DNA from: Myxococcota bacterium
Lineage (GTDB): Bacteria > Myxococcota > Kuafuiibacteriia > Kuafuiibacteriales > Kuafuiibacteriaceae
Assembly: GCA_036337945.1 (NCBI GenBank)
Contig: JAYZDF010000062.1
Coordinates: forward strand, 29,998 to 93,997
DNA: 64,000 nucleotides
Direction of reading: 5' to 3'
The first letter of the stretch is position 1, and each line of letters starts with the position of its first letter. This document shows positions 12,195-58,993 of the stretch, one piece after another. Made by a program: the position numbers and the translations under genes. The notes under the pieces are model-generated. The model was not told where the DNA came from. It saw only the letters and a list, made by a program, of their open reading frames with translations, and made no database searches.

Positions 12195-12533
12195 ATGGGT
12201 CGGCCTCGTAAAAATAAAACAAACCAATTTGCAGTCGCTCTTGCAGAGGAAATTGAGCTGCAAAATGAGTCTAGAATTAATTTCAGAATTAGGCAGGAAA
12301 GAGTATTTTTTATGGAAAAAATTTTAAGTCTGACAGAATATATAGAGAAACTTGAAGGTCGAATTGAGAAGCTAGAAAGTCTAATTCAGAAACAACAACG
12401 AAGACCACTTGGGCGATGGGTGCCAGGTGGGCCAGGGCGGCCCCCAAAAGATGCCGCAGAAAGAATCGCCGCTTTCACGAAAAAAAGTGAAATGAACGGA
12501 ACGGAAGTGGAGAACAAAGATGTTGGGGGTTGA
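12195..12533 (+). CDS. small coiled-coil protein with N- and C-terminal AT-hook-like motifs
   Basis: MGRPRKNK at the N-terminus and PGGPGRPPKD near the C-terminus (GRP cores flanked by basic residues), with a central heptad region EYIEKLEGRIEKLESLIQKQQ. Overlaps the next gene by 14 nt. Confidence 0.5.
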   Translation: MGRPRKNKTNQFAVALAEEIELQNESRINFRIRQERVFFMEKILSLTEYIEKLEGRIEKLESLIQKQQRRPLGRWVPGGPGRPPKDAAERIAAFTKKSEMNGTEVENKDVGG

Positions 12534-13647
12534 TGAGTTTGAAGCGTTCGTATTCAAGGCTTTGGAAATCGAACCATCTGAAGAGCTACTTGATTCCTGG
12601 GCGATAAGCTATGAGAAACTTCAGTCTCGGCTCACCCGCAATCGCAAGGAGAGCCTTCAAAAGAATTCAAGCGCGGCGGGCGAGCAGGGCGCGGGCGACA
12701 TTGTCCGCGGTATCGTTCATGCGGGACGAACCTTTCGTATTGCTCAACGTATCTTGAGTATATATCCACCAGCGGCAGGACGAATGCTAGAGGTAGGGGC
12801 AGGCATAGGGCCCTTTGCGTTCGCTGCCCACAGTATGTTCGGCGAGCCGGTTACTATTCTAGAGAAAAATCGACGGATGCTCAGAAATGCTCTGAATCTC
12901 TTCGAAGCGGCTGAAATGGACGTCCCGAAGAGTATTCATGGAGATGCAACCCAGCCCATTACCTACCGTCAGTACTCTGCGGTATTCGCTCCTTTCGTGC
13001 TCAACGAGATTCTTACAAGAGTAGAAAGCGAGGACGTGGTCGGAGCGGGGCGGAAACAGGTTAAGAGTTGGTTGACGGCTTGTCGGAGAGGAGGTCGCCT
13101 TTACATTCTTGAGCCAGGAACCAAGGAAGCGGCTCAAAACCTCCAACGTCTACGGGAGACACTGAAGGACGAATTTCAAATCATTGGGCCGTGTACACAT
13201 GATTCTGAATGCCCAATGCTGAATGGAGAGAAAGATTGGTGTCACGTCACTTGGCGTATAGAGTCGGGGAACTGGGCTCAAAAGATCGCGGAAAGAGCGA
13301 AGCGCAGATTTCAAGACCTTCATTTCTCTTGGCTCATACTAGAGAACAGAAGGCCACAGCAAAGAGAGCCGGACAGCTTGAGAGTCATGGACGTCCGAAG
13401 AAATGATAAGAACAAACTTAGAGTGGTGACCTGCGGGACGAGCGGGCTTGAAACATTGGTCGTTCAAAAGAAGAACCGAGCAACCTACGAGGCATTCGAT
13501 GATTATCAGTCGGGAGATGAGCTACGGGTGACACTCAGTCAGCTAGAGAGGAAAGGGGACGGGTTCAGAGTGACGAGTGAAGAACAGATAAAGCATCGAC
13601 GGTCAGTGATGCAAAGCGTGGCCACTCTTTTGGACAACCAGACCTAG
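12520..13647 (+). CDS. class I SAM-dependent methyltransferase with C-terminal Cys/His cluster (Rsm22-like)
   Basis: Motif I MLEVGAGIGPFAF with acidic residue after beta-2 (VTILEKN); cluster CTHDSECPMLNGEKDWCHV as in Rsm22/METTL17-type methyltransferases. Confidence 0.5.
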   Translation: MLGVDEFEAFVFKALEIEPSEELLDSWAISYEKLQSRLTRNRKESLQKNSSAAGEQGAGDIVRGIVHAGRTFRIAQRILSIYPPAAGRMLEVGAGIGPFAFAAHSMFGEPVTILEKNRRMLRNALNLFEAAEMDVPKSIHGDATQPITYRQYSAVFAPFVLNEILTRVESEDVVGAGRKQVKSWLTACRRGGRLYILEPGTKEAAQNLQRLRETLKDEFQIIGPCTHDSECPMLNGEKDWCHVTWRIESGNWAQKIAERAKRRFQDLHFSWLILENRRPQQREPDSLRVMDVRRNDKNKLRVVTCGTSGLETLVVQKKNRATYEAFDDYQSGDELRVTLSQLERKGDGFRVTSEEQIKHRRSVMQSVATLLDNQT

Positions 13648-13659
13648 GCTAGAGACAAA

Positions 13660-13675
13660 TGTTCCACGTGAAACA
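13660..13675. promoter_or_regulatory. parS: parS centromere-like site, perfect TGTTCCACGTGAAACA
   Basis: Exact match to the Bacillus-type parS consensus TGTTNCACGTGAAACA; the 5' flank AGAGA is shared with the other copies. Confidence 0.8.
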
Positions 13676-13769
13676 TTCACAGATTGATTCACAGGCTTGC
13701 AAAGGAACGCAAAGCGGCTTGTCAGAAGAAAAATCTATCATTTTCGGATCCTTATAATGCAGAGAACAG

Positions 13770-13785
13770 TGTTCCACGTGAAACA
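13770..13785. promoter_or_regulatory. parS: parS centromere-like site, perfect TGTTCCACGTGAAACA
   Basis: Identical 16-mer exactly 110 bp from the first copy. Confidence 0.8.
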
Positions 13786-13794
13786 TTACGTGAG

Positions 13795-13803
13795 TTATCC
13801 ACA
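13795..13803 (+). promoter_or_regulatory. perfect DnaA-box 9-mer TTATCCACA
   Basis: Exact consensus 9-mer 10 bp downstream of parS copy 2, inside a CGTGAG...CTCACG inverted repeat. Confidence 0.35.
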
Positions 13804-13879
13804 GCTCACGAAAACGTGAGCGCTTCAAAGACATGCTTTCTTGGACATATCGAAAGCCTGATCGAAGACGAGAGAAACG

Positions 13880-13895
13880 TATTTCACGTGAAACA
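13880..13895. promoter_or_regulatory. parS: parS-like site TATTTCACGTGAAACA (one mismatch)
   Basis: Third copy exactly 110 bp from the second; the 5' flank AGAGAAACGT is conserved. Confidence 0.6.
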
Positions 13896-14046
13896 TAAAA
13901 GTAAGAACGCCTGGAGATAGGGCAGTGTAGGGTTTGAAAACGCCCGAACCGGATGATTTTAACCTCTTCAGAGACTTATCTAGCAACATGAATGATTAGA
14001 CCGATTCTGATGAATAAAGAACCGAATCTTAGAGTTCTTCTATCTT

Positions 14047-14064
14047 AATGAGAGATCTCTCATT
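14047..14064. repeat. 18-bp perfect palindrome AATGAGAGATCTCTCATT
   Basis: Read directly from the sequence; lies within a 9-bp inverted-repeat-bounded segment (AGTGTAGGG at 13924-13932 / CCCTACACT at 14068-14076). Confidence 0.5.
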
Positions 14065-14561
14065 CTGCCCTACACTTCTCGAGATTTGTAAAATTAGAGA
14101 TGATACATAAGAATAGTCTTTTTACGCTCCTATCCAGCGGGCCTGTCGTGAAGCGATGGGGAGTTTTTTTCTATAAGATTCCACTCAGAAGCAAATCCGT
14201 TTTATTACTCTAGTCGCAACGCTATTTCGGTAATCCAGAATCCGGCTGGGAAACAAAATCATTCCGTGGACTAAGGTACGAAGGTTTCTTCACAGGCTTA
14301 TACGACTTGAAATTTTTAGGCATAACGTTTTTCGAAGTCTTCTGCGAGTCGCGGGCTTACAACTTTGACCATCGAGAAAAGTTATGCTCGGCTTCGGAGG
14401 AAAGGAGAAAATAAACGACTCAATACTTTTTTGGAACCCAACACCTCCTCTAACAGAGCATCTTACCACTCATGATAAGCAAGATTCTCTACTCCGTCGC
14501 CAAACCGCGTTCATATTTCGTTTCGAAGTTTTTTTTTTAATGAAGAAAAGATGACTCGTGA

Positions 14562-14594
14562 ATAAGAACTAAACATCTGTTTAGTTCTTATTCT
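14562..14594. terminator. perfect 15-bp-stem hairpin (AATAAGAACTAAACA tc TGTTTAGTTCTTATT) spanning the stop codon of the HTH gene
   Basis: Perfect inverted repeat with a 2-nt loop; no clear U-tract, so terminator function is uncertain. Confidence 0.3.
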
Positions 14595-20283: not shown

Positions 20284-20464
20284 AACTATCTCCGTTCAGA
20301 GCTGGCTGTATCGCCATAGCGCGCTTAGCCTGTCAAGCGATCGCTTCACACTAATGTGTGAGAATCTGATCTTTTTTTTCATTTTTGGTTTGATTCATAT
20401 TCACAATTTCCGTAGTTGCGGCAGCTCCTGGCTCAGGCTACTTTGCCAGACTCCCGCATACGCT

Positions 20465-21892
20465 ATGAATGCAGATGCGGGAACAAAAAGGGGAATATAT
20501 CAGGTGGAATTGGCCGAAAATCAGCCCAATTGGATCCAACTTAAAGACGCTCTTGCTCGTCGACTTAGCCCACAGGTTTGGGCCACATGGATCAATCAAA
20601 TCAAGTGCCTGGAAGATAATGGAAAAACCCTCAGGATCGGGCTACCTGACACATTCAGTCTGAATTGGGTGAAAGATCACTATCGTCACGTCATTGAAGA
20701 AGAACTTCAAAGTATCGGAAGCATCGACCTTCTCTTCGACCTTCACGAAGTAGAAAAGGAGAAAGAACCCGAACCTTCTGAAGCCCCAAGCAAAGTCGAA
20801 GAAGCCTTACCTATTCCCGAACCAGTAGAAGAAGCACGACCGACATCTTTTCGAAGTAATATTCCAACGCCTTCTCGTCCCCAACTGAACCCTCGATACA
20901 TTTTTTCCAATTTTGTTGTCGGGTCCTCGAACGAACTCGCGTGGTCTGCGGCCCAGGCTATCGCCGAAAACGACCGCCCACCATACAATCCGCTGGTCAT
21001 CGTGGGTGGAGTAGGGTTGGGTAAGACCCATCTTTTGCACGCCATTGGGCACATTTTCCAAAAGAAACGCCCTCAGGCTAAAATTCAGCTCAAAACCAGT
21101 GAAGCCTTCATCAATGATGTCGTTACCGGAATCCAAGAGCATCGTATGCCGCAGGTCCGCTCTCGATATCGCAACTGTGACCTTCTTCTTATCGACGATA
21201 TTCAGTTTATTTCTGGAAAAGGACACTGTCAGGAAGAGTTCTTCCATACTTTCAACGCCCTCTACGACGCTCAGAAACAAATTGTCGTTACCTCGGATCG
21301 TATGCCGCATGAAATCGCAGACATAGAGCAGAGAGTCCGTTCGCGTTTCGCGTGGGGGCTCATTGCCGACCTAAAACTCCCTGAATTGGAAACACGAATC
21401 GCAATCATCCAACAAAAAGCCGCCAACGAAGGGCTTGAACTTGATGAAAGCGTAGCAAAATTCCTGGCGCAGTCCGTTCGGTCCAACACAAGAGAGCTGG
21501 AAGGCTGTATAAACCGCGTTCACGCCATCGCTTCTCTGCGAAAAACCCCTATTACTGTGAGTCTCACCAAAGAGGTCCTGCAGGGTATTATTAGTGACAA
21601 AAGCCAGGCCCTTACCTGCGACAGTATTGTTCGCGCCGTTGCTGCACACTTCGAGATCCGAATATCTGAACTGAAATCGACAAAACGCGCTCGAAATATA
21701 GCGTTTCCCCGGCAAATCGCGATGTATTTATGCCGAAATCATACCAGCGCGTCTTATCCAGACATTGGAAACGCCCTTGGCGGCAAAGATCACAGCACAG
21801 CCATCAACGCCGTGAAGAAGATTACTGAAAAAATTACCGAACCCGATGTGCGAAACCACATCGAAGAAATCGAAAGACAATTGCTCGATTAG
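20465..21892 (+). CDS. dnaA: chromosomal replication initiator DnaA (start taken at MNADAG rather than the upstream ORF start 20354)
   Basis: AAA+ Walker A GGVGLGKTHLLHAIG, sensor motifs, C-terminal DNA-binding domain (KRARNIAFPRQIAMYLCR...STAINAVKKI). Confidence 0.95.
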   Translation: MNADAGTKRGIYQVELAENQPNWIQLKDALARRLSPQVWATWINQIKCLEDNGKTLRIGLPDTFSLNWVKDHYRHVIEEELQSIGSIDLLFDLHEVEKEKEPEPSEAPSKVEEALPIPEPVEEARPTSFRSNIPTPSRPQLNPRYIFSNFVVGSSNELAWSAAQAIAENDRPPYNPLVIVGGVGLGKTHLLHAIGHIFQKKRPQAKIQLKTSEAFINDVVTGIQEHRMPQVRSRYRNCDLLLIDDIQFISGKGHCQEEFFHTFNALYDAQKQIVVTSDRMPHEIADIEQRVRSRFAWGLIADLKLPELETRIAIIQQKAANEGLELDESVAKFLAQSVRSNTRELEGCINRVHAIASLRKTPITVSLTKEVLQGIISDKSQALTCDSIVRAVAAHFEIRISELKSTKRARNIAFPRQIAMYLCRNHTSASYPDIGNALGGKDHSTAINAVKKITEKITEPDVRNHIEEIERQLLD

Positions 21893-22159
21893 AGCCACAG
21901 AGTATTGAAGAGAATTAACCACATGATGTTGTGTGTAACAGCCAAAAGAGCGTCTATAACTTGTGTACAGAGTTGTGATATGCGTGTGGAAAAGAAACGT
22001 GACGAGTTGTACACAATTTATCCAACTTTAATTCACAGTGAAGGGTTGTCTATGATCGAGAATCAAAACAAGGATTTACAAAAGTTATCCACAATTCACA
22101 GCCCCTACTACTACGATCAGTTTATTTAAAATACAGAACAGACTAGGACACAGAAAAAT
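21893..22159. other. oriC: putative oriC: dnaA-dnaN spacer with DnaA boxes and an AT-rich unwinding region
   Basis: Perfect TTATCCACA at 22083-22091; one- or two-mismatch boxes TTAACCACA, TGTGGAAAA and TTATCCAAC; AATTCACAG repeated twice; inverted repeat TTGTGTACA...TGTACACAA; AT-rich tract just upstream of dnaN. Confidence 0.6.
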
Positions 22160-43281: not shown

Positions 43282-46038
43282 ATGACTGTAATTGCCGAAG
43301 TAACAGCCCATGGGCAAAGTATCTGGTTCGACTATATTCAGCGGAATATGATTTGGGACGGAACACTTCATCGAATGGTTATTGAAGACAGCGTTCGAGG
43401 AGTCACGAGTAATCCTTCGATCTTCAATAAGGCCATTGGTGGTTCAAAAGACTACGCCCCAGCGATGAGAGCCTCTGTAGCCAGCGGAGGAACTCCCAAG
43501 GATGTTTTTGAGCGTATTGCGATCACCGACATTCAAATGGCCGCCGACGTTTTGTTTGGGGTCTACAATGAAACTAACGGATTAGATGGTTACGTCAGTT
43601 TAGAAGTTTCTCCGTATCTTGCGTACGACAGTCAAGGAACGATTGAAGAAGCCGAACGGCTTTGGACTGAAGTTGCACGCGAAAATGTGATGATCAAGAT
43701 ACCCGCGACTGAAGAAGGACTTGTGGCGATCGAACATTGCATTGCTTCAGGCATCAATGTGAATGTCACTCTTTTGTTTTCGGTTGAAACGTACGAAGCG
43801 GTCGCTTGGGCATACATAAGAGGACTCGAAGCTCGTGCAGAACACGGCGGAGACTTAACTCACGTAGCCAGCGTAGCAAGCTTTTTCATTAGTCGCATCG
43901 ACGCGTTGATCGAAAAACGGTTTGCTGCCCTCGAATCTGATGCTGATGAAGAAACAAAAAAACTTATGCAAGATTTGAGCGGTAAGATTGCTATCGCAAA
44001 TGCGAAGGTTGCTTACCAGTCGTATAAAAATATTTGTGAGCATGAGCGATTCAAAAAACTTGTCGAACAAGGTGCTCAGCCTCAACGTCTTCTCTGGGCG
44101 AGCACTGGAACTAAGAATCCAGAATATTCTGACGTTCTTTACGTCGAAGAACTAATTGGTCCTGAAACAGTCAACACCGTTCCAGAAAAGACCTTTCACG
44201 CTTTCAAGGATCATGGAAAAAGTGATGCAAAACTACTTGAAGGAATTGATGAAGCTTCTGCTTTAGTAGAGAGCCTTAAAAAAACAGGAGTCGACCTCAA
44301 CGAAGTGACATCAGAACTTCTCGATAAAGGCGTAATTGCATTTGCCGATGCTTTCGATGAACTCCTGGGAACGGTCGAATCACGACGGAGCGACCTTCTT
44401 GATGCTGAACTCAGTTCTGTTTTAGTCAAAGCACCAAATCACATTGAAGAAATTGACCAGACCATCGAGTCACTGCGTAAGAGCGCTTTTGTTCGTCGCT
44501 TGTGGCAGCGCGACTCACGTCTTTACGCCGGAAGTGAAAAAGAAGATCGATGGGGCTGGATGATGCATGCAGATGAGTTAGCGGATCAATTGCTAGGTCT
44601 CTCTGCTTTCGCCGAAGATTTGGAAGATAGTGGTGTTGAGTACGTTGTTTGGCTCGGAACCGGTGGTTCATCTCGATCAGCTCGAGTATTTTCTTCACTT
44701 CTTCCACGCGGCGAGGATGCACCACATTTATTCTTTTTGGAGTCCACGCATCCAGAATCGATTCAGCGGATCGAGAGTCAGATTGAACTTGATAACACGG
44801 CATTCATCGTAGCGAGCAAGAGTGGCACGACAGCAGAAACGCGAACGCTTGCAGACTATTTTTGGGATAAAGTCGGTGAAGAGGCCGTCTGGTATGCCAT
44901 TACCGACCCTGATACAGCGCTGGAAACCTTAGCGGAAGAGCGAAATTTTGCCGGCGTGCTGCACGCAGAACCAGACGTTGGTGGTCGTTTTGCTTCTCTG
45001 ATCGGCTTTGGTCTGGGTGCTCCGGCCCTGCTCGACCAAGATTTAGGTTCTGTTTTATTTCATACAGAAGCAATGATCGGAAGCTGTCACGGTAGCTCTC
45101 CAGCTCCGCAAAACCCAGGTGTTCAGTTAGGTGCGGCGCTGGGTGTTTTTGCTAAAGCTGGTTACAATAAGCTAACTCTTTCTTTATCGCGTGAGTTGAG
45201 TGGTTTTGGTCCATATCTTCAACAACTCGTCGATGAGAGTCTCGGTAAAGATGGAAAAGGCTTAGTGGTCATTGATGGCGAATCAATCACTAGTCCCGAA
45301 AAGTATGGCAACGATCGATTGTTTGTGTCGCTACTGTTGGGTGGAGAGAAGGTCAGCTCCCGCTTGGCTGCTTTAGAGGCTGAAGGTCATCCACATATCG
45401 AAATTCGAATGGACTCCTGTGATATGATTGGTCAGCAATTTTTCTTGTGGCACATAGCTGTCTCTACTGCCGCTCATGTCCTAGAGATCAATCCATTTGA
45501 CCAACCTAATGTGGAATTGAGTAAGAAGCTGAGTCGTGAATTTCTAAGTTCAGAAACGACGCTCGATTTGAATCTTCCTTTATCGGGTGAAGAAGTTCTT
45601 CATGACGATGAAAATGTCACTATTTTCGGAACAAGTACTCTAGGGAGTGTTTCTCGACTTGACGAGACAATCGTAGAATTTGCGAAAGGCGCAGGTACGG
45701 GCGCTTATGCAGCTTTACTTGCTTACGTTGATGAAACCAATGAGACTGAAGAACTCCTACAAGCATTGCGCTTGAAGATTCGAAATCAAACGCACTTGGC
45801 AACAACTCTTGGTTTCGGTCCGTCGTACCTTCATGCGTCTGGCCAACTTCATAAAGGAGGTCCAGACAAGGCACGCTTTGTCGTCTTTACACCGTCTCTT
45901 GAAGATTCAACAACGGAATGTGCCCAATTACTCTGTGCGCAAGCAGCCGGCGACGTTCACGCTCTTCGCCAATCTGGTCGCGACGTTCTTCGCGTTCAAC
46001 TCAAGAGCACGCTGCGTTCTGCCCTCGGTTCGTCGTAG
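43282..46038 (+). CDS. bifunctional transaldolase / glucose-6-phosphate isomerase
   Basis: N-terminal transaldolase (SIWFDYIQRNMI...VTSNPSIFNKAI...IKIPATEEG) fused to C-terminal PGI (GTGGSSRSARVF...). Confidence 0.85.
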   Translation: MTVIAEVTAHGQSIWFDYIQRNMIWDGTLHRMVIEDSVRGVTSNPSIFNKAIGGSKDYAPAMRASVASGGTPKDVFERIAITDIQMAADVLFGVYNETNGLDGYVSLEVSPYLAYDSQGTIEEAERLWTEVARENVMIKIPATEEGLVAIEHCIASGINVNVTLLFSVETYEAVAWAYIRGLEARAEHGGDLTHVASVASFFISRIDALIEKRFAALESDADEETKKLMQDLSGKIAIANAKVAYQSYKNICEHERFKKLVEQGAQPQRLLWASTGTKNPEYSDVLYVEELIGPETVNTVPEKTFHAFKDHGKSDAKLLEGIDEASALVESLKKTGVDLNEVTSELLDKGVIAFADAFDELLGTVESRRSDLLDAELSSVLVKAPNHIEEIDQTIESLRKSAFVRRLWQRDSRLYAGSEKEDRWGWMMHADELADQLLGLSAFAEDLEDSGVEYVVWLGTGGSSRSARVFSSLLPRGEDAPHLFFLESTHPESIQRIESQIELDNTAFIVASKSGTTAETRTLADYFWDKVGEEAVWYAITDPDTALETLAEERNFAGVLHAEPDVGGRFASLIGFGLGAPALLDQDLGSVLFHTEAMIGSCHGSSPAPQNPGVQLGAALGVFAKAGYNKLTLSLSRELSGFGPYLQQLVDESLGKDGKGLVVIDGESITSPEKYGNDRLFVSLLLGGEKVSSRLAALEAEGHPHIEIRMDSCDMIGQQFFLWHIAVSTAAHVLEINPFDQPNVELSKKLSREFLSSETTLDLNLPLSGEEVLHDDENVTIFGTSTLGSVSRLDETIVEFAKGAGTGAYAALLAYVDETNETEELLQALRLKIRNQTHLATTLGFGPSYLHASGQLHKGGPDKARFVVFTPSLEDSTTECAQLLCAQAAGDVHALRQSGRDVLRVQLKSTLRSALGSS

Positions 46039-49779: not shown

Positions 49780-52017
49780 CTATATTCTTCCGACGCTTTC
49801 GCGCGAGGTATTGCTTCGGTCTTCTTTTGATTTTCTCCGCTGCGCCGTCAAAAGGCTCTCCATCAAGAAAAAACAAAGCATCGCTATAAGTAGCCATTGA
49901 GAGAATCGATTTGGATCGCTGTTATTTCCCGTGTCCCACGTAAATGCAGATGCCTCCGCGATCTCATTTTGTTTTTTGATATCTTGCCCTCGAAGTGCTG
50001 CTATCGCTTCTTGCGCAGTGAGTGTCTCAAGGTTCGACTCTTGTCGATCCACATTCACTACAAAATCTTCTTTCGCGACCCTTTGCGACTCACCGCTTGT
50101 AACCGCTTTGACTTGGTAATATCCGGGCAATGCTGTTTTTGTGAACAACCAGTCTTTGTCTTCGAGTTGCGTAGATACTGAATGAATCTCTCCGTTTGGA
50201 TCAGTAATCTCTAACTCGGACACATTTTTCGGGACCCGGATTCTTCTCGCATCTCCTATCAGAGTGCGGCGGTTATCCGGAGGAGCCAGCGCATCACCGA
50301 GATATAAAACGAGTTGCCGAACGAGTGGGACAAAAGCTGGCCGTATCGCTAGGTCGGTCAAATCGCGATCAATAGAAGTTGTGAGGACGATAACTTTACC
50401 GCCGCCTATTTGACTTTCAATGAGTGCAGGCTGACCGTCTTCAAAAGTAGCCAGAACGTCCGCGGACCTGTTCCGATTAGGCTGCAGAAGAAAATAGCCT
50501 TGAGTTCGAGTTGACTTTAGGCCTTGTAAGGCGTCTCCCCGAAAAACAGACAGTACGGGGTGTGCTAGATTCAGTTCCCCGAGCAAAAGCGAATCATCAT
50601 TTTTTTTCCGCTCTCTCAATGCTTTGCGTTCCTTAAATCCGCGATACGTACGAGGAAGCAAGCGAGCAAAAACGCCGTTGAACTGCTCTATATCCATTGA
50701 TTGCGCTGACGAAATCAGTAGGCCTCCTCCCGACTCCACAAAGGTCTCAATCTTTTTTGCATCGCTAGTAGTAATACTATTTACTCCCGCCAAAACAACG
50801 ACGTCGAATAAATCTAGATTTTGGGCTTGCAGGTCATCTGAGAGGATAATTTTGGGTGCTGGTTGCTCGGATGCTCCTGCCGCAAACGCTCTTTCGAAAT
50901 AATAAATCTCGTCCTCTTTTGGTAGTCCGGACGGCTGACCATCGATAATTAGGGTTCGTACCCGCGACTCAATATTCACCATCGCAAAGCGTTGATTATC
51001 CTCTGTAAGCACATCGTCCTCGAGTACAACAGATACAGCAAACCTCTTTTGGTCCGTGAACGAATGTTCTAAAACCCTCTGGGTTTCATTACCTCCAACA
51101 ATACTCACACTCGCTTCAGCGACGGTACCGTCTGGTCCCACCCAATTAATGTTCTTCGAAGCGCTCGTTCCCTTTGAGCTTTCGTCGGAAACATACGAGC
51201 GAATCCGTACTCGTGCCTGCATAGCATTCACTTCCGAACCGGGAGCCGATAGTATTTCCAATTGCGAAATACCATAGTTATCGAACTCTTCTCTGTCTAT
51301 GCTTTCGAATACGTTAACGACGCTCGCATTTATCTCCGGCGTCAACGATGCTGCCTGCTGAAAACTGTGTGCAGCAAGATCAGATAAGATGATAATATGC
51401 TTAGATGTCTCTGTTGCCTCTTTTTGGCTTTCTTTTTGCGAAACGTCTCCGTCTACCGTGCTCAAGAGTTCCCCGGCTACATTGACTGCGTCAGAGATCT
51501 CGGCCGCCGCATACGTCGCTTCAAGGTTTGTGACCGCTTGAAGAAGAGATGCTTTCGCGTTGCTGAATTCTTCGACAATCAATCTGGGTTTGCGTTCAGC
51601 CAATACAATGAGCATCTGATCTGATGCTGTCATTTGCTCAATGATTTGACGAGCGATCGATTTAGCTTCTGCAAATCCTGAGCGCCCACCATCCGGCTTT
51701 GATCGCATTGATAAAGAGCCGTCTATAATCATAACAATTCTCTTTGGGCCCTTGTTTTTGGCCAAAGCGGAGGACTTGACTCCAGTCATAGGGTGAGCCG
51801 CCGCGAAGACAAGGGCTGCGATGAGCAGCATGCGGCATGCAAGCAACAAAAAACGTCTTAGTCGCCACTGGCGTTCAATCCTCTGAACACTACGAATCAC
51901 AAATTCAATTGCCGCAAATTCATGTTTGCGAGGTTTTCTTTTGTGAATGAGATGAATAATGATCGGAATCAAGGCTGCGAGCAATCCGAAGAGCATACCA
52001 GGTTTCAGAAAACTCAT
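49780..52017 (-). CDS. BatA-like N-terminal double-TM / von Willebrand factor A domain protein
   Basis: N-terminus MSFLKPGMLFGLLAALIPIIIHLIHKRKP (BatA-type motif); MIDAS-containing vWA (MIIDGSLSM). Confidence 0.7.
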   Translation of the reverse strand: MSFLKPGMLFGLLAALIPIIIHLIHKRKPRKHEFAAIEFVIRSVQRIERQWRLRRFLLLACRMLLIAALVFAAAHPMTGVKSSALAKNKGPKRIVMIIDGSLSMRSKPDGGRSGFAEAKSIARQIIEQMTASDQMLIVLAERKPRLIVEEFSNAKASLLQAVTNLEATYAAAEISDAVNVAGELLSTVDGDVSQKESQKEATETSKHIIILSDLAAHSFQQAASLTPEINASVVNVFESIDREEFDNYGISQLEILSAPGSEVNAMQARVRIRSYVSDESSKGTSASKNINWVGPDGTVAEASVSIVGGNETQRVLEHSFTDQKRFAVSVVLEDDVLTEDNQRFAMVNIESRVRTLIIDGQPSGLPKEDEIYYFERAFAAGASEQPAPKIILSDDLQAQNLDLFDVVVLAGVNSITTSDAKKIETFVESGGGLLISSAQSMDIEQFNGVFARLLPRTYRGFKERKALRERKKNDDSLLLGELNLAHPVLSVFRGDALQGLKSTRTQGYFLLQPNRNRSADVLATFEDGQPALIESQIGGGKVIVLTTSIDRDLTDLAIRPAFVPLVRQLVLYLGDALAPPDNRRTLIGDARRIRVPKNVSELEITDPNGEIHSVSTQLEDKDWLFTKTALPGYYQVKAVTSGESQRVAKEDFVVNVDRQESNLETLTAQEAIAALRGQDIKKQNEIAEASAFTWDTGNNSDPNRFSQWLLIAMLCFFLMESLLTAQRRKSKEDRSNTSRESVGRI

Positions 52018-52949
52018 GTGAGACTCCCTCGCCCCGATGCCCTAATCGTTAGGTAGCGACTAAGTAATCGAGTCGGAGACTGGTCAGTCCGCACGAGTTC
52101 ATAGTCGACTCGAGCACTACGCGCGCGAACCTTTACGTCATGAAGAAAAGAGTCCATCTCTTTTAGATATGCAGATTTTATCGCGTGGGCATCGATAGGC
52201 ACGCTGCGATCTCCCTCAAGATCGGTAAATAAAGTGCTGCCTTCAAATGGAAAGTCCAACTCATCAGGATCAAGCAAATGAAATAAGGTTACATCGTGTC
52301 GACGGGCCGCGACTCGCGAGAGAGCTTGAAGTGCTTCCGAATTTGTATCAAGCAAATCTGAAAAAACGATGAGAGACATTCGCTTTGATATTCCCTCTGC
52401 TAGTTGATTGAGAGCACTACCGAACCGAGTTGTTCCTGATGACTGTAGTGCTTCTAGTTTAGAAAAAATTTCTTGAAGTTGACCACGTCGGGCACGTGAA
52501 GGAACTTCTATGTTGAACTCATCTGCGAAGCTTGCCAGCCCCACTGCATCGCCTTGTCGAGCGAGAAGATAGGCGAGAGCACCAGCGCAAGTCATCGCGT
52601 AATCTTGTTTACTAAGCTGTTTTTCTGCACCCTCGCGTCGATACTTCATTGACCCCGAGACATCAACTACAAGCAAAGCACTGAGGTTTGCTTCGTCCTC
52701 AAACTGCTTGATGTAGTCCCGATCATGACGTGCATAGGCTCGCCAGTCCAAATGACGAATATCATCGCCCGGCGAGTATTTCTTATGTTCCGAAAATTCT
52801 ACACTGCTTCCGTGATGTTTAGAGCGATGCATACCATGCAAGACGCTGTCGGCGAGTGTTCGAGCGCGAAAACTCAGAGAGCCTATCTCTGCCAGTACCT
52901 CAACGTTCAACTGGCGCTGCTGGCCATTTGTTTTATTCGTTTCACCCAT
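52014..52949 (-). CDS. DUF58 (vWA-like) protein
   Basis: HHGSSVEFSEHKKYSPGDDIRHLDWRAYAR signature. Confidence 0.8.
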   Translation of the reverse strand: MGETNKTNGQQRQLNVEVLAEIGSLSFRARTLADSVLHGMHRSKHHGSSVEFSEHKKYSPGDDIRHLDWRAYARHDRDYIKQFEDEANLSALLVVDVSGSMKYRREGAEKQLSKQDYAMTCAGALAYLLARQGDAVGLASFADEFNIEVPSRARRGQLQEIFSKLEALQSSGTTRFGSALNQLAEGISKRMSLIVFSDLLDTNSEALQALSRVAARRHDVTLFHLLDPDELDFPFEGSTLFTDLEGDRSVPIDAHAIKSAYLKEMDSFLHDVKVRARSARVDYELVRTDQSPTRLLSRYLTIRASGRGSLT

Positions 52950-53973
52950 TCGGTTTGAAGCCTTGCACGACTTCTCTTACGAGGTCTGAAGACGAGACCC
53001 CTGACGCTTCCGCGTGGAAATTAGTGACTACGCGGTGCGCGAGGACAATAACCGCAATATGGCGAATATCTTCAACACTTGGGGTACTTCGTCCTTGAAG
53101 TGCAGCGCGTGCTTTCGCTCCCAAGACTAAGTACTGAGATGCTCTCGGACCAGCTCCAAAAGAAACAAATTCTCGTATTCTCCCGGCCAGTTCGTCCGAA
53201 AGATGTTCGCTACAAGATGCCGGGCGAGTTGCTCGGGTGAGGCCTACTGCATAATGAACAACATTTTCTGCCACCGGCACTCGCCGCACGAGCTCCTGAT
53301 ATTGAAGTATCTTTTCTGGTGTAAGTACCTTCTCGAGCTGAGGTCGCTCCTCACCAGTTGTCGACCGGACAATCTCGATTTCGTCCTGTTCGCTGGGATA
53401 ACCAACGTCGAGCATGAACATAAATCGATCCATTTGCGCCTCAGGAAGAGGATATGTTCCCTCTTGCTCGATTGGGTTTTGAGTTGCAAACACATGAAAC
53501 GGTTGTCCAATAGAATGTGTCGCCCCCGAAGCAGTCACTTGAAATTCCTGCATCGCCTGCAGAAGTGCTGCCTGCGTTTTCGGGGGGGTGCGATTGATTT
53601 CATCCGCGAGGAGAAGGTTTGTAAAAATAGGTCCTTTGACAAACCGAAAGGATCTACGCCCGTCATCGCCTTGCTCCAATACGTCTGTGCCAGTCACGTC
53701 CGAAGGCATAAGGTCAGGGGTAAACTGGATCCGATTAAAGTCCAAAGCCAAAACTTCAGCCAAGGTTTGGATAAGTAATGTCTTCGCTAGTCCTGGAACG
53801 CCTACAAATAATGCATGGCCCTTAGCCAGCAGAGCTATTAGAAGATTTTCGATGACGTCTTGTTGACCAATCACCCTTTGGCCCAGCGCTTTCTTTGTTA
53901 ATTCTGCGGCCTCACTCAACTCCCGAATGAGACTAACGTCGTTTGGCGTTTCATTTGAATTTTGGTCTGTCAT
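52942..53973 (-). CDS. MoxR-family AAA+ ATPase
   Basis: VIGQQDVIENLLIALLAKGHALFVGVPGLAKT, Walker B LLADEINR, 343 aa. Confidence 0.9.
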   Translation of the reverse strand: MTDQNSNETPNDVSLIRELSEAAELTKKALGQRVIGQQDVIENLLIALLAKGHALFVGVPGLAKTLLIQTLAEVLALDFNRIQFTPDLMPSDVTGTDVLEQGDDGRRSFRFVKGPIFTNLLLADEINRTPPKTQAALLQAMQEFQVTASGATHSIGQPFHVFATQNPIEQEGTYPLPEAQMDRFMFMLDVGYPSEQDEIEIVRSTTGEERPQLEKVLTPEKILQYQELVRRVPVAENVVHYAVGLTRATRPASCSEHLSDELAGRIREFVSFGAGPRASQYLVLGAKARAALQGRSTPSVEDIRHIAVIVLAHRVVTNFHAEASGVSSSDLVREVVQGFKPNG

Positions 53974-53981
53974 CAGTTTCC

Positions 53982-55829
53982 TTATTTTCCTAATCGTACT
54001 TTCGTCACATCTTCTGGTGTTGTGGACGCCTCAATCTCTACTTCATGAAGCGTAGGTTCGCCAACCGGTGGAACGAGTTTAATCGTGGTCGGACCTGGCC
54101 GTAAAGTGATTGGTGCTGAAGGTGTACTCATTCCGGTGGCTAAGTCACGGGCTCCATAGTCTCCCTTCTGGACAATAAAAATGCGAGAGAAGCCCGAAGA
54201 TGAAAACTGAACCCGTGCGCCAGACCCGAGGTCTGGTGCACGTGGCCGGAATGACTGTTGCAAAACACCCAGTGCGATTTGTGCTTGCTCAATTTTTTTA
54301 CGGTTCCCTTCTGGACCTAAAACAGCGAGAAGCAGACTATGGACTCGGGGGTCAAAGGGATTAATATCAATCGCTGTATCAAGAGGCTCCATAGCTTCAT
54401 CACTACGTTCTTGTCGCACAAGAGCCTCTGCGAGAGTGAGGTTGGGTCCTGGCAAATCTGGCACTCCATCGATAGCGCGCTTTGCCGCTTTCTCTGCACC
54501 CGGCAGATCATTCACAGCGAGTGCTATATTGGCAATCTTTGCACTGAGCAGTGGTGATTCAGTAATCGTGTACGCTTTTTCTAACTCTTTCTGAGCTGCC
54601 ACCATTCGCCCGCGAGCGTATAAAAGATCAGCGGCACGGGCGAACCGTCGAGCTTTTTTCGACAGCCCATGGAATTTGTCGTCAGGGGTGTTGCTTCGCT
54701 TTTTGATTACCAGCTCACGGTCTTGCCCTTTTTGTCGGCCTGCTGTGAGAATTTTACGCTTCGGAAGGGCAGCTTTCCATTTCTCTGTAAGCGCTCCAAA
54801 CGGCATCCCGTGAATTTTTTCAATAGCGACTTCCATGGGCACACCTTTCGATAGTGAAGCGAGAAGTTCTCGCATCCCTTTCCAGCCTTTGCGTTCACAG
54901 AGAAACTCGATGAATGTAAACACTTCCGAAAAAGCGAGCGAGGACTCTTCCTGGGTTTCCAGTTTCGCCATTGAAGGATGCATTTTTGCAAATGGAATCA
55001 GAGTTCCCTTCTTGGCCGCCTCTTTGAGTCGCTCTTGTGCTTCTACTGAAAGAGCTAAGCCAGGTTCTGCCCTCCATGCTGTTTCCGTGAATTTTGCGAT
55101 ACCTTCATGCAGCCAAATAGGGACGGAGTTTTTGGAGACACCACTGATCAACAAGTGAACAAGTTCATGGGAAAGAGTGTCGCGCCATCGATAGCCAAAC
55201 ACAATGGCGCGAGGTGTGGTCACCATTAGGCGATTCCATTTGCAAAGCGCAATCGTGCCCGAGTTGGCAATTTCTTCCTCCGTGAGCGTTGAGACCGCTG
55301 CGAGGGTAGCCGCGCTAGGATAGAACTCTACGATAATCCTTGAGCTTGGCTTCCACCCTAACAACTTGCCCACGCTATCCAAAGTCATCTCAAGCGTATC
55401 AATGGCGTAGGGAACAAGCACTGCGTCTTTCCCTGGTTCGTGTCTAACAATAAAGTTTTCGCTTACTGTCTCGACGTACCCTTTGGTTGCAACCTTTGCC
55501 GCTTCTGCGAGAGGAGCGTCAGACAATACGACATCTGGTGCTCCATTTTTCTTTGCCGCCTCGAAATAATGTACGGCGCCCGCATAATCAGACGTTTGTA
55601 ATTTAACTTGGGCCAACAGGGACAGTACGAGAGGGTCGTCGGGGTGCTCGTCGTATAGTTCTTCCGCGATTTCCCGAGCTTTATCGATTTGCCATTCTTG
55701 AATCGATTCGAAACCAGCTTTTAACGCGTCTAGAGATGGTTCTGCCTGCGCATTTTGGCTGCCGCCAAAACCAGTGATGAGTGCCATGGCAAAGACGGAG
55801 ACTAACTTGGCGAACCTTGCTTTGTTCAC
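53982..55829 (-). CDS. secreted TPR protein with HExxH zinc-peptidase-like (peptidase MA-type) motif
   Basis: Signal peptide; SHELVHLL HExxH; TPR-like repeats. Confidence 0.55.
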   Translation of the reverse strand: MNKARFAKLVSVFAMALITGFGGSQNAQAEPSLDALKAGFESIQEWQIDKAREIAEELYDEHPDDPLVLSLLAQVKLQTSDYAGAVHYFEAAKKNGAPDVVLSDAPLAEAAKVATKGYVETVSENFIVRHEPGKDAVLVPYAIDTLEMTLDSVGKLLGWKPSSRIIVEFYPSAATLAAVSTLTEEEIANSGTIALCKWNRLMVTTPRAIVFGYRWRDTLSHELVHLLISGVSKNSVPIWLHEGIAKFTETAWRAEPGLALSVEAQERLKEAAKKGTLIPFAKMHPSMAKLETQEESSLAFSEVFTFIEFLCERKGWKGMRELLASLSKGVPMEVAIEKIHGMPFGALTEKWKAALPKRKILTAGRQKGQDRELVIKKRSNTPDDKFHGLSKKARRFARAADLLYARGRMVAAQKELEKAYTITESPLLSAKIANIALAVNDLPGAEKAAKRAIDGVPDLPGPNLTLAEALVRQERSDEAMEPLDTAIDINPFDPRVHSLLLAVLGPEGNRKKIEQAQIALGVLQQSFRPRAPDLGSGARVQFSSSGFSRIFIVQKGDYGARDLATGMSTPSAPITLRPGPTTIKLVPPVGEPTLHEVEIEASTTPEDVTKVRLGK

Positions 55830-58800
55830 TTCACTATCTCCTCGTAGTACTCTCGAACAGCATCCTTATATTGTTCTACGGTTCCTTGTTTCGCTGCATC
55901 TAAAATTTCTTCTCTGAACTCCGCCGGGGCCTTGTATTGCTCTGGTTTTGGAATAGCTACCTTTTCGTTAGATCGTGGATCTCTTCCTCGAGAACCTTTA
56001 CCTCCTGGTTGCCCCATTCCTTGTTGTCCAAATGGCATCGGCATGCCGCCTCCCTGCCCGGAACCTTGTTGTCCCATTTGATCGAGGGCGTCTCTAAATT
56101 TGCCCAGTGCGTCGAGTGCTTGCTGTTGCTGCCCTCTTGACCCTGTTGCATCTGACTTCCCGAGTTGTTGAGAGGACCGGTTCATGGCTTGCCCTGCTTG
56201 ATCAAGCATTTGTGGCAACCCTTCTCCGACCATCGGTAGTTCTTGTGACAATTCTGAAAGCTGTTGCTTTAGCTGCTGCGCGCGCTGCTCTAGCTGCTGC
56301 TGACTCTTCGCCATTTCCTTCATTTGCTTTTGCTCTTTCTTTGAAAAGAGCTGTTCTTGGTTCGGCATGAGCTTGTTAATGTCGTCCCAGATTTTCTGCA
56401 TTTCTGGTTGAGTCTTTTTGATTTTTTCAATCGCCTCTTTAGCTTCATTGGCTCGCTTTCTTTCTGTTCCAAACCGATTAAGAGCTTCCGCACGATCTTG
56501 AGTGTCTCTTTGAAGTTGCCCTAGGAATTTCATAGCTTGTTCAGCCATTTCTTTTGCCGCGCCAAAGTCCTTTGCTTCAAGTGCCCGTTTAGTGTCATTG
56601 ACTCTTCTTTCGGACTGCTGAAAGAGGTCTCCTTCAGTGACGTGTGCCCCTGGTTTAGCGTCTTTCATATTTTTTTCAATTTTTTGGATCCGCTCGATTT
56701 GTTTCTTTACGAACTCATCTGGATTGCCCAGCCTTTCTTTCATCCGCTCTAGCACTTTCTTCGCTTTTTCTTCCGTTTTTTGGCTCAGCTCACGCTGTTT
56801 TTTTTCGATGTCCTTCAGGTCTTCGTACATCTTCTCTGCCTTTTTTGTTATTTCTGAGTACTCTCTTTCGCCGAGCTCTTCCCGTCCATCTCGCATCTCC
56901 GAAAGCATCTTCTCAGTACCGTTGAGCATTTTTTCTAGCTCGTTCATGGCATCATCAAGATTACCTTCCTGAATCATATTTTCGATTTGGCTCAGGTTGT
57001 CCATTGTGTCTTCGGTTTTCAAAGCGTCTTGGTTCACAAAGTCTTGTGGAATTGATCCACGAACTTTTGAGAGTTCTGCCAAGATTTCACTCATGCGCTT
57101 TTTGATATCTTGGATGGCTCTCATCAACGCTTGCTTTTTCTGTTCAGTTGGCGCGTTTTTGTATTCTTCGAGCGCGTTTCGGAGAGCTTCTTGTTGCTCT
57201 CGTAATGACTTGGTCAGCTCTTCAGCGTCGAGCATGAGCTGGTCGTTCAGTAAGTCAGCAAGATATACGACGTTTTTTTCTAAATTCCGAACCATCGTGT
57301 TTTGCGCCCGTTTATTGAGTCGAAGAGAAGAGGGCGCTCGCTTGCTCGAGGTCCCTGCCTCTCGCTCCGACTTTCTGAGGGCGGTGTCTTGTCGTCTTTG
57401 GTCGCGGTTTAGTTCGCGTCGAGTTTTTTCGAATGCGGTCGCCACCTCTTTACGTCCTAGGGGGTCTTTTTTTATCGCAGCAACTGTCTCAATGAGAAGA
57501 GTATTGGTTTCGGTTGCTTTACCAAGCATTGTTTGAAGAAATTTGAACAAGCCATTTAGGTCGTTGCCTTGCAGGCTTGTGTTTACTTCCGTCTCAAGGT
57601 TGTCACCCAATATGTGAATAAGTGAATCGAGCGCTTTTTGTTGCATCGCTACAACTTCACGGTGATGCTCACGCTCAGAATATATCCGGAGTTCCTGAGT
57701 TCGGCTTGCGCCGAACTTCGGGCCATTAACAGTGTCATTATCTTGTGCTTCGACGGAGTAGGCGATTCTGTCGCCCGGCTTGAGTTCAAGTTTAGACAGA
57801 TCAAAAACGCCTTGGTCTGCGTGTCTTTTCTTGCCAGAACTCGCGGCGCTCAGGAGTTGACGGCCTTCTTGGGCTGTCCCAAGAATACGCCAAACTACGA
57901 AGGTCTCGCCCAGCCCAAAATCATCATTGGCAGAAAAGTCTATATCGACGATATCTTTCGCATTTACTTCCAGAGATTCTTCGGTAGGTTTATGGAGCGT
58001 CACGCGCGGGGGGAGGTCTACCTCTAGTTCGATACGGTGGTCCGTTTTTTCCCGATAGGCCTGTTGGTCTGTACCTAGAGCTTCAAAACGATAGGCTCCG
58101 GCGCGGCTTACGATGAAGCTCGTGCTTACAATTGACCCAGTAGAGTTTTCGGTTACTTTTGCCGCGGTTCTGCTTTCGGTTTTGTCAGCGTCGGTCCCAT
58201 GAATGAGTACTAAGGTTGCGCTTTGGACTTTTTGCCGCGACGTCGTCTTAATCGTTATCTCTGTTCCGGGTAGCGCCCGAATTTTTCCTGACGAAATTCT
58301 TCGACTGTAACTTTTTCTCTTTGCATAAGAAGGCGGGCGATAGGTGATGTGGAATTCGTCGAGTCGTAAGCTGGGTACTGTGGGTGCCAGTCTCTGGAGT
58401 TCACTCAAAGAAGTAAGGGCACGCATACTTGCGTGAAGATCTTTTGGACAAATGACAGCGAGCAAAGAAATTGTAGCCAACGCGCTCATGAGGCTTAGGG
58501 CGAGTCGTTTAACTTTTGGCCAGTTTTCTGAGGCGACAAGCGATTTGGGATCTAAGGATTGCGATGCATTTGCAATGACTTCAACACTGTGTTGGGTGAG
58601 TCCTAAACTCTCTTGATATTTCCCTTCATCCCGAGCGAGCTCAAGTGCAGATTGAATGCTGGAGTATTTTGAGTTGGAGTCATATTTCTGGTCCAGCCAT
58701 CGAGCGTTTTTAATTTCATCTTTTGTCTCTTGATGAACTTGCCAGACGTATTGATAGAAGACCCAGCTTACGAGAGCAATCAGTCCGAGGATTTCGAATA

Positions 58801-58993
58801 TCGCCAAGTTCACAGCCACGACACCTAAGTGATGTAACAGCGTGCCGATAACCAAGACGACGCAGAATCCTAGTCCGAGAACGAGGCTTCCGTTAAAGTG
58901 GGTGGCTCTACGTCGATATCGCCGAACTTGTGCGATGATCTGAGTAAGTTTGTTCGGAAGGTTTGCCTGTGGCATTCGCGATAACGGTAACAT
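55826..58993 (-). CDS. large membrane-anchored protein with Ig-like region and about 500 aa of coiled coil (Bat-operon associated, BatD-like by position)
   Basis: N-terminal TMs, long Glu/Lys/Gln-rich heptad region, Gly/Gln-rich tail; first gene of the operon ending with the vWA protein. Confidence 0.5.
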   Translation of the reverse strand: MLPLSRMPQANLPNKLTQIIAQVRRYRRRATHFNGSLVLGLGFCVVLVIGTLLHHLGVVAVNLAIFEILGLIALVSWVFYQYVWQVHQETKDEIKNARWLDQKYDSNSKYSSIQSALELARDEGKYQESLGLTQHSVEVIANASQSLDPKSLVASENWPKVKRLALSLMSALATISLLAVICPKDLHASMRALTSLSELQRLAPTVPSLRLDEFHITYRPPSYAKRKSYSRRISSGKIRALPGTEITIKTTSRQKVQSATLVLIHGTDADKTESRTAAKVTENSTGSIVSTSFIVSRAGAYRFEALGTDQQAYREKTDHRIELEVDLPPRVTLHKPTEESLEVNAKDIVDIDFSANDDFGLGETFVVWRILGTAQEGRQLLSAASSGKKRHADQGVFDLSKLELKPGDRIAYSVEAQDNDTVNGPKFGASRTQELRIYSEREHHREVVAMQQKALDSLIHILGDNLETEVNTSLQGNDLNGLFKFLQTMLGKATETNTLLIETVAAIKKDPLGRKEVATAFEKTRRELNRDQRRQDTALRKSEREAGTSSKRAPSSLRLNKRAQNTMVRNLEKNVVYLADLLNDQLMLDAEELTKSLREQQEALRNALEEYKNAPTEQKKQALMRAIQDIKKRMSEILAELSKVRGSIPQDFVNQDALKTEDTMDNLSQIENMIQEGNLDDAMNELEKMLNGTEKMLSEMRDGREELGEREYSEITKKAEKMYEDLKDIEKKQRELSQKTEEKAKKVLERMKERLGNPDEFVKKQIERIQKIEKNMKDAKPGAHVTEGDLFQQSERRVNDTKRALEAKDFGAAKEMAEQAMKFLGQLQRDTQDRAEALNRFGTERKRANEAKEAIEKIKKTQPEMQKIWDDINKLMPNQEQLFSKKEQKQMKEMAKSQQQLEQRAQQLKQQLSELSQELPMVGEGLPQMLDQAGQAMNRSSQQLGKSDATGSRGQQQQALDALGKFRDALDQMGQQGSGQGGGMPMPFGQQGMGQPGGKGSRGRDPRSNEKVAIPKPEQYKAPAEFREEILDAAKQGTVEQYKDAVREYYEEIVK

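Follow-up and report, generated by a model that had tools for sequence, protein, structure and literature searches.

What is the function of three parS-like palindromes that lie at equal 110-bp intervals in a gene-free gap near dnaA of a Myxococcota genome? The sites are located on contig JAYZDF010000062.1 (assembly GCA_036337945.1), within the 64,000-nucleotide stretch analysed here, hereafter the window. An initial annotation had described them as a phased ParB nucleation centre near the origin. Judged from its sequence, the locus is very likely a conserved chromosomal centromere (parS) close to the replication origin, belonging to a marine Myxococcota-like lineage that is uncultured; two of its parS sites are accompanied by probable DnaA boxes. 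The sites, reproduced here at exactly the positions and spacing first annotated, are as follows:

13660–13675, no strand assigned: parS1, TGTTCCACGTGAAACA, perfect consensus, 13 nt past the stop codon of an Rsm22-like gene
13770–13785, no strand assigned: parS2, TGTTCCACGTGAAACA, perfect consensus
13880–13895, no strand assigned: parS3, TATTTCACGTGAAACA, single mismatch (G2A), the least constrained of the three, without an adjacent DnaA box

The start-to-start intervals from parS1 to parS2 and from parS2 to parS3 are both exactly 110 bp, and the three sites span 236 bp. Measured against the 16-bp palindrome TGTTNCACGTGAAACA, the array comprises two perfect matches and one match with a single mismatch, and no further parS with up to two mismatches occurs elsewhere in the 64-kb window. 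Three parS in 236 bp cannot be a chance occurrence, because the expectation for a word with 15 specified bases is about 1e-4 per 64 kb.

The array is embedded in a non-coding gap that is bounded by the 3' ends of both flanking genes, each pointing inwards:

13648–14580, no strand assigned: non-coding gap of 933 bp between convergent genes, with the part 3' of parS3 poorly conserved and variable in length
12520–13647, + strand: Rsm22-like methyltransferase gene (PF09243), whose stop codon anchors the ancestral parS position, with orthologues in L001, L155 and L157
14581–15162, − strand: gene for a 193-amino-acid (aa) HTH_17 (excisionase/MerR-like) protein, syntenic with the parS locus in all relatives

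Homologues of DnaA and of the HTH_17 protein led to the orthologous loci. The parS content of these loci is listed below, with spacings stated in the orientation of the window; L001 and L002 are the same locus, and L055 lies on the same contig as L002.

Window: three parS, 110 and 110 bp apart
L001 (same as L002), HTH_17 protein 85% identical: three parS, 111 and 113 bp apart
L003, HTH_17 protein 91% identical: three parS, 122 and 111 bp apart
L004, HTH_17 protein 80% identical: three parS, 110 and 111 bp apart
L155 and L156, DnaA 67% identical: one parS
L157 (an NCBI Myxococcota metagenome-assembled genome, MAG), DnaA 57% identical: two parS, 82 bp apart

In the deeper relatives, parS follows the Rsm22 stop codon after 3 nt (L155) or 33 nt (L157), and the second parS of L157 retains a perfect 14-bp core. 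A four-genome alignment of the gap shows 15 of 16 columns to be invariant in parS1 and in parS2, and 12 of 16 in parS3, compared to 26–28% in the spacers and 17% in the rest of the gap. This is the signature of purifying selection on the sites, whose orthologues are present in L001–L004, L155 and L157. By this comparison, the locus and its parS motif are old and under selection, since the parS columns are largely invariant and the sites persist in deeper relatives, and the three-site array itself is an expansion specific to the clade of the window. The initial annotation had also extended each site to a 27-bp box by a 5' 'AGAGA' element; the element is present in all three copies of the window, but only 10–30% of its columns are invariant across relatives, and the extended box is specific to this genome.

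The locus belongs to a recognizable origin region. The gene order of the window is uvrA, rnhB, a Ser/Thr kinase gene, a CarboxypepD_reg protein gene, the Rsm22-like gene, the gap, the HTH_17 gene, a methyltransferase gene, jag, yidC, dnaA, dnaN and recF. Two features define the position of the array relative to the origin:

20354–21892: dnaA, with its start at 20354 (or 20504), 6.5–6.6 kb from the parS array
21893–22159, no strand assigned: putative oriC in the dnaA–dnaN spacer, 267 bp of 37% GC that hold six DnaA boxes (up to one mismatch) and lie about 8 kb away from the parS array

The distance to dnaA agrees with the roughly 6.6 kb initially annotated. The dnaA–dnaN spacer holds the densest DnaA-box cluster of the window, against a background of 0.69 boxes per kb, and its layout is kept in L001; it is likely to be oriC. 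This putative oriC includes TTATCCACAATTCACAG at 22085–22101. The parS-bearing gap was considered as oriC and rejected, as the DnaA-box cluster and the AT-rich DNA sit in the dnaA–dnaN spacer instead. The parS sites are thus origin-proximal, with dnaA 6.5 kb away and the DnaA-box cluster at about 8 kb. Among named organisms, the DnaA proteins most similar to that of the window are from Myxococcota and 'Deltaproteobacteria' MAGs (53–57% identity), and the close relatives come from marine metagenomes, TARA among them.

On the 3' side of the first two parS sites, we observed a second conserved element, which the initial annotation had passed over; the conserved flank of parS is the 3' side and not, as first described, the 5' side.

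13685–13694, + strand: DnaA box 1, TGATTCACA(G), which departs from TTATNCACA at one position and lies exactly 9 nt 3' of parS1
13795–13804, + strand: DnaA box 2, TTATCCACA(G), perfect consensus, exactly 9 nt 3' of parS2
13676–13682, + strand: TTCACAG abutting parS1, reading ACATTCACA together with the parS arm, a word that weakly resembles a DnaA box and precedes box 1 by 12 bp

As extended words, the two 3' flanks read TGATTCACAG 9 nt after parS1 and TTATCCACAG 9 nt after parS2. The boxes match the DnaA 9-mer consensus TTATNCACA with one and no mismatch, respectively. All 10 columns of box 2 are invariant in the four genomes, as are 8 of 10 in box 1, and the variation among the ten box instances falls on position 5, which is the degenerate N of TTATNCACA, and on position 2. 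The same words recur in the putative oriC: TTATCCACA has two copies in 64 kb, namely box 2 and one in the putative oriC, and five of the eight ATYCACAG words in 64 kb lie in the array (three) or in oriC (two), with three elsewhere. The TTCACAG beside parS1 is kept as TTCACAG or TTTACAG in L001, L003 and L004, and L155 carries two TCACAGG words 12 bp apart on the 3' side of its single parS. The 122-bp interval between parS1 and parS2 of L003 is explained by one extra 12-bp TTCACA unit, which shows that the box array beside parS1 can expand by whole units. The extra unit appears as tttacagtttgattcacagattcattcaca at about 2130–2183 of L003, on the reverse strand relative to the window. Judged by consensus and conservation, DnaA is probably bound right beside the ParB loading sites parS1 and parS2. 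By analogy, these invariant boxes at a fixed offset suggest an initiator–centromere coupling of the Caulobacter type in a Myxococcota-like lineage.

The proposal that the array acts as a ParB nucleation centre near the origin has held up, backed by consensus identity, origin proximity and selection at orthologous sites; that the sites are functional parS is well supported by these comparisons. The cognate ParB is assumed to be encoded in the genome of the window, by analogy with Myxococcota biology (PMC3899335). Sequences, positions, conservation, synteny and the history of copy number are observed directly; from them we infer ParB binding, DnaA binding and all functional consequences. ParB is described as a CTP-dependent clamp that loads at a single parS and slides away (PMC8494293, PMC10387095). 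In the proposed mechanism, CTP-bound ParB dimers would recognise each 16-bp palindrome, close into clamps and slide to the flanking DNA. Three loading sites in 236 bp would raise ParB loading into one partition complex about 8 kb from oriC, which ParA would segregate and which could load SMC. DnaA at the boxes 9 nt from parS1 and parS2, on the side facing oriC, may couple replication initiation to segregation, may act as a one-sided roadblock to ParB sliding, or may do both. We postulate that an ancestral single module of parS and DnaA box after the Rsm22-like gene was amplified locally, and that the period of about 110 bp would have been roughly maintained since then, not as a helical-phasing device.

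Several observations weigh against parts of this picture. No ParA, ParB or SMC domain is present in the open reading frames (ORFs) of at least 150 aa in the window, which for parAB had been anticipated in the initial annotation, and parA, parB and smc were not found in the 20-kb loci of the relatives either. No DnaA box is adjacent to the parS sites of L157, and boxes are not obligatory partners of parS here. The GATTCAC of box 1 is one mismatch away from the ParB half-site GTTTCAC, and the boxes could serve another protein. The spacers between the paralogous sites are at chance identity, so that the proposed amplification rests on copy-number phylogeny and not on residual similarity. The module itself was the subject of two scans. 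A scan for 'parS, 9 nt, TKATYCACA' across 185,579 species genomes returned 29 loci in scattered taxa, with one match each and none from the lineage of the window; given an estimated million or so parS sites, this number is close to chance. In a metagenome scan from parS to a perfect DnaA box with a variable gap of 0–30 nt (at least 120 loci), the offsets among the matches listed are spread over 0–30 nt without a preference for +9, which accounts for 3 of about 89 unique contexts compared to about 2.9 expected under uniformity. The lineage of the window is represented among these matches by one locus, L055.

A fixed distance from parS to the box is consequently not a general feature of centromeres, since the offsets are evenly spread and the genome count is near chance. 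On these counts, a DnaA box is often found beside parS, whereas only particular lineages have the fixed +9 offset. The small lineage clusters that stand out in the genome scan are Caulobacter, Sphingomonadales, Weeksellaceae, Roseibium and Ignavibacteria, and loci with the arrangement 'parS, 9 nt, DnaA box' include:

Caulobacter: L025 (1672–1737), also L022 and L031
Sphingomonadales: L008, L019, L020, L023 and L028
Weeksellaceae: L006, L012, L016, L017 and L034

In Caulobacter segnis, the module reads TGTTCCACGTGGAACA-agcgcgagc-TTATCCACAG and is flanked by two further parS.

The main rival to the DnaA-box reading assigns the 3' flanks to a factor other than DnaA, either the HTH_17 protein binding TTCACAG direct repeats or ParB binding half-parS-like heptamers. 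The HTH_17 gene is found with the parS locus in all relatives and, in L157, directly downstream of parS; the flanks also contain direct repeats with a 12-bp period (TTCACAG-N5-TTCACAG), as is typical for proteins that bind head to tail, and the half-site likeness of GATTCAC described above fits the ParB variant. Against these points, TTATCCACA is a perfect and invariant DnaA consensus, the same extended words are concentrated in the oriC cluster between dnaA and dnaN, far from the HTH_17 gene, and the boxes vary at the degenerate position of the DnaA consensus. Moreover, TTATCCAC is two positions off the half-parS GTTCCAC, and L157 possesses parS and the HTH_17 gene while lacking the boxes. 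We regard a non-DnaA factor as improbable, though a serious contender, and retain DnaA as the probable ligand of the boxes.

It is also unlikely that the locus serves mainly to control DnaA, whether by titration or reactivation in the manner of datA or DARS or as an auxiliary origin component, with parS in a secondary role. In favor of this role, the long non-coding gap close to the origin has two or three conserved DnaA-type boxes that are not part of oriC, and origin-proximal DnaA-box clusters that regulate initiation are described for B. subtilis (PMC3245932). However, the gap has two good boxes compared to six in the dnaA–dnaN spacer, its parS sites are conserved as strongly as the boxes or more so and persist in the box-free L157, and no evident AT-rich unwinding element accompanies the boxes (GC of 0.475 for 13001–14000). 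These features favor the centromere over a DnaA-control site.

Less likely still is a role of the parS sites mainly as operators, with ParB spreading to silence or tune the Rsm22-like and HTH_17 genes rather than serving segregation. ParB represses promoters beside some parS in P. aeruginosa according to PMC5521831, and the two parS of L157 are situated just upstream of the HTH_17 gene. In the clade of the window, however, both flanking genes point into the gap, placing parS at their 3' ends without a promoter-like site, and these are the only parS in 64 kb around the origin, where a segregation centromere is expected.

The initial annotation had read the 110-bp interval as phasing that places all three sites on the same side of the helix. 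This was an arithmetic slip: at 10.5 bp per turn, 110 bp correspond to 10.48 turns, or about 171 degrees, and adjacent sites face opposite sides. The intervals of the relatives drift, with angles of 206 degrees at 111 bp, 274 degrees at 113 bp and 223 degrees at 122 bp. Selected helical phasing of three ParB-bound sites on one face for cooperative assembly can hence be set aside as very improbable: the exact 110/110 spacing of the window, its narrow variation in the clade and the mutually unrelated spacers would speak for it, but neighbouring sites are half a turn out of register, the relatives share no common phase, deeper ones have a single site or two sites 82 bp apart, and face alignment is unneeded because ParB, as described above, loads as a sliding clamp at individual parS sites.

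Approximate spacing is a different matter. The eight intervals of the clade average 112.2 bp with a coefficient of variation (CV) of 3.6%, and seven of them fall within 110–113 bp, whereas the distance from parS3 to the HTH_17 stop codon measures 685, 809, 780 and 964 bp in the four genomes, with a CV of 14%. This difference suggests that the approximate spacing of the array is under some constraint within the clade. The spacers are also somewhat better conserved than the remaining gap.

How, then, did the array arise? Without their DnaA-box part, the spacers of the window have an in-register identity of 19–23%, which is chance level, and they lack the similarity that a TRF-style search would detect, so that the array does not consist of sequence-similar direct repeats of the sopC kind. 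When gaps are allowed, a single pair, spacer 1 against spacer 2, scores z = 4, a value that stems from the box and an AGAGAAC tail. The initial annotation had taken the unrelated spacers to argue for selection on site and phasing rather than for recent duplication; the spacers are indeed unrelated and recent duplication is excluded, while selection for an exact phase did not stand. A recent tandem duplication was rejected on the chance identity of the spacers, with which an old duplication remains compatible. On comparative grounds, an old amplification of a unit of about 110 bp containing parS and box is most likely, as the simplest reading of the copy-number pattern, because one site is found in L155, two in L157 and three in the clade of the window.

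It is textbook knowledge that parS sites lie near the origin and vary greatly in number and spacing (Livny, Yamaichi and Waldor 2007, as cited in PMC3527565 and PMC3899335). The locus resembles chromosomal ParABS centromeres, for example the Spo0J sites of Bacillus subtilis, in having the same 16-bp palindrome in multiple origin-proximal copies at a position conserved among relatives. It differs in having no adjacent parAB (none within 13.6 kb on one side and 50 kb on the other) and in packing three sites into 236 bp at an almost constant interval.

In M. xanthus, whose ParABS system (ParAB) is essential (PMC3899335), 22 parS are distributed over 3,054 bp, with about 145 bp per site on average; the cluster precedes parA by about 4 kb, and about 35 kb separate it from oriC (Iniesta 2014, PMC3899335). 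The two loci share a neighbourhood at the phylum level, a dense non-coding parS array and an interval of similar order (about 145 compared to 110 bp), and the M. xanthus consensus TGTTCCACGTGGAAC(G/A) matches sites in the relatives of the window. In contrast, the array described here has 3 sites, lies closer to oriC (8 kb, compared to about 35 kb), is not beside parAB, and carries a fixed-offset DnaA box at two sites, a feature unreported for M. xanthus in PMC3899335.

In Caulobacter, DnaA reportedly binds DnaA boxes within the parS region and enables segregation (Mera, Kalogeraki and Shapiro 2014, as reported in PMC6399470). The present locus is similar to that of Caulobacter crescentus as described there, with DnaA boxes inside a parS region about 8 kb from the origin. 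It is also similar in module, with parS, 9 nt and TTATCCACAG found in C. segnis and two other Caulobacter loci, although this is possibly not the box studied by Mera 2014. Caulobacter belongs to another phylum, and the locus of the window carries the composite module twice, with a 110-bp period and with DnaA boxes that are predicted from sequence. In the F-plasmid centromere sopC, a 43-bp unit is directly repeated 12 times, and SopB binds a 16-bp inverted repeat within every unit (PMC3177203). As in the window, palindromic centromere sites thus recur regularly in tandem, at a constant interval. However, sopC consists of true sequence repeats with a 43-bp period beside sopAB, while the array of the window combines unrelated spacers, a 110-bp period and the chromosomal parS motif.

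Regular parS arrays were also encountered among the loci returned by both scans. This sample of 149 loci is biased, as it was chosen for a DnaA box near parS, and partly redundant; within it, the distances between neighbouring parS peak at about 100–131 bp. Six loci (L041, L042, L063, L118, L137 and L150), from low-GC genomes, contain 7–8 parS at intervals of about 100–130 bp with occasional half-intervals of about 55 bp, and the spacers in these arrays are mostly unrelated, at chance identity. L063 and L137 represent one lineage, in which the array adjoins gyrA. No description of such regular parS-array spacing was found in the literature.

The remainder of the gap was surveyed for other content. 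It has no credible ORF between 13648 and 14580, in line with the gene-free region of about 930 bp first annotated, and the early dismissal of an ORF at 13684–13920 is borne out, as three relatives do not preserve this frame and have several stops in each frame of the array region. That the gap is a decayed gene or encodes a small protein was considered and rejected, with no conserved ORF among relatives. Rfam returned no family in the whole window at gathering thresholds and none in the gap in E-value mode, and neither ARAGORN nor Rfam detected a tRNA or other RNA gene; the sole scoring feature is a terminator-like hairpin at the end of the HTH gene, well below threshold. A scan of the gap for promoters and terminators gave no promoter-like (sigma-70-like) site and two weak terminator-like sites, not above shuffled expectation. 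The sequence AGGTTTCTTCACAGGCTT at 14282–14299 is 83% identical to the box 1 context AGATTGATTCACAGGCTT (13681–13698) and is not conserved in relatives; it is probably a chance match or a decayed copy.

The HTH_17 stop codon is overlapped by an inverted repeat at 14560–14593, whose 16-bp arms are perfectly complementary around a 2-nt loop (GAATAAGAACTAAACA tc TGTTTAGTTCTTATTC). Its core AACTAAACA..TGTTTAGTT is nearly invariant in the four genomes, and the only Rfam hits of the repeat are weak hairpin matches; the repeat probably acts as a bidirectional terminator and may also be an operator. The HTH_17 protein itself is lineage-restricted, features an uncharacterised C-terminal region of about 130 aa, and is always encoded beside the parS locus. 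A word-indexed search retrieved only four homologues at E<1e-3:

L155, 4123–4719: HTH_17 homologue
L157, 2759–3268: HTH_17 homologue, in a gene inverted relative to the window, which brings the two parS directly upstream of it
L158, 882–1478: HTH_17 homologue
L159, 740–1441: HTH_17 homologue

Farther from the array, the window encodes a 918-aa protein (43282–46038, + strand) in which a transaldolase domain is fused to a phosphoglucose-isomerase domain. It also contains a Bat/MoxR-type operon (49780–58993, − strand) with the transcription order DUF4175, Peptidase_MA/TPR protein, MoxR AAA_3 ATPase, DUF58 and BatA-VWA.

Most of what the locus presents is as expected near a bacterial origin, and dense parS arrays are already known in Myxococcus. 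For an uncultured, marine and Myxococcota-like lineage, the locus points out the chromosomal centromere and the likely oriC, and the array illustrates the growth of a centromere from one to three loading sites. Quasi-periodic parS intervals of about 100–130 bp occur here, on average in M. xanthus and at several metagenomic loci, and their recurrence in unrelated genomes constitutes a testable side observation. We put forward only as speculation, and think it improbable, that 'parS, 9 nt, DnaA box' is a dedicated module coupling replication to segregation and that such arrays are an undescribed recurrent architecture with a physical basis. Most notable for specialists, two of the parS are each followed, after exactly 9 nt, by an invariant DnaA box. 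If DnaA binds there, the locus would provide comparative evidence of initiator–centromere coupling beyond Alphaproteobacteria, experimentally shown so far in Caulobacter. If the coupling module is real, DnaA docked beside ParB loading sites would license or polarise centromere assembly, and the mechanism of DnaA at the Caulobacter centromere would extend to a Myxococcota-like lineage.

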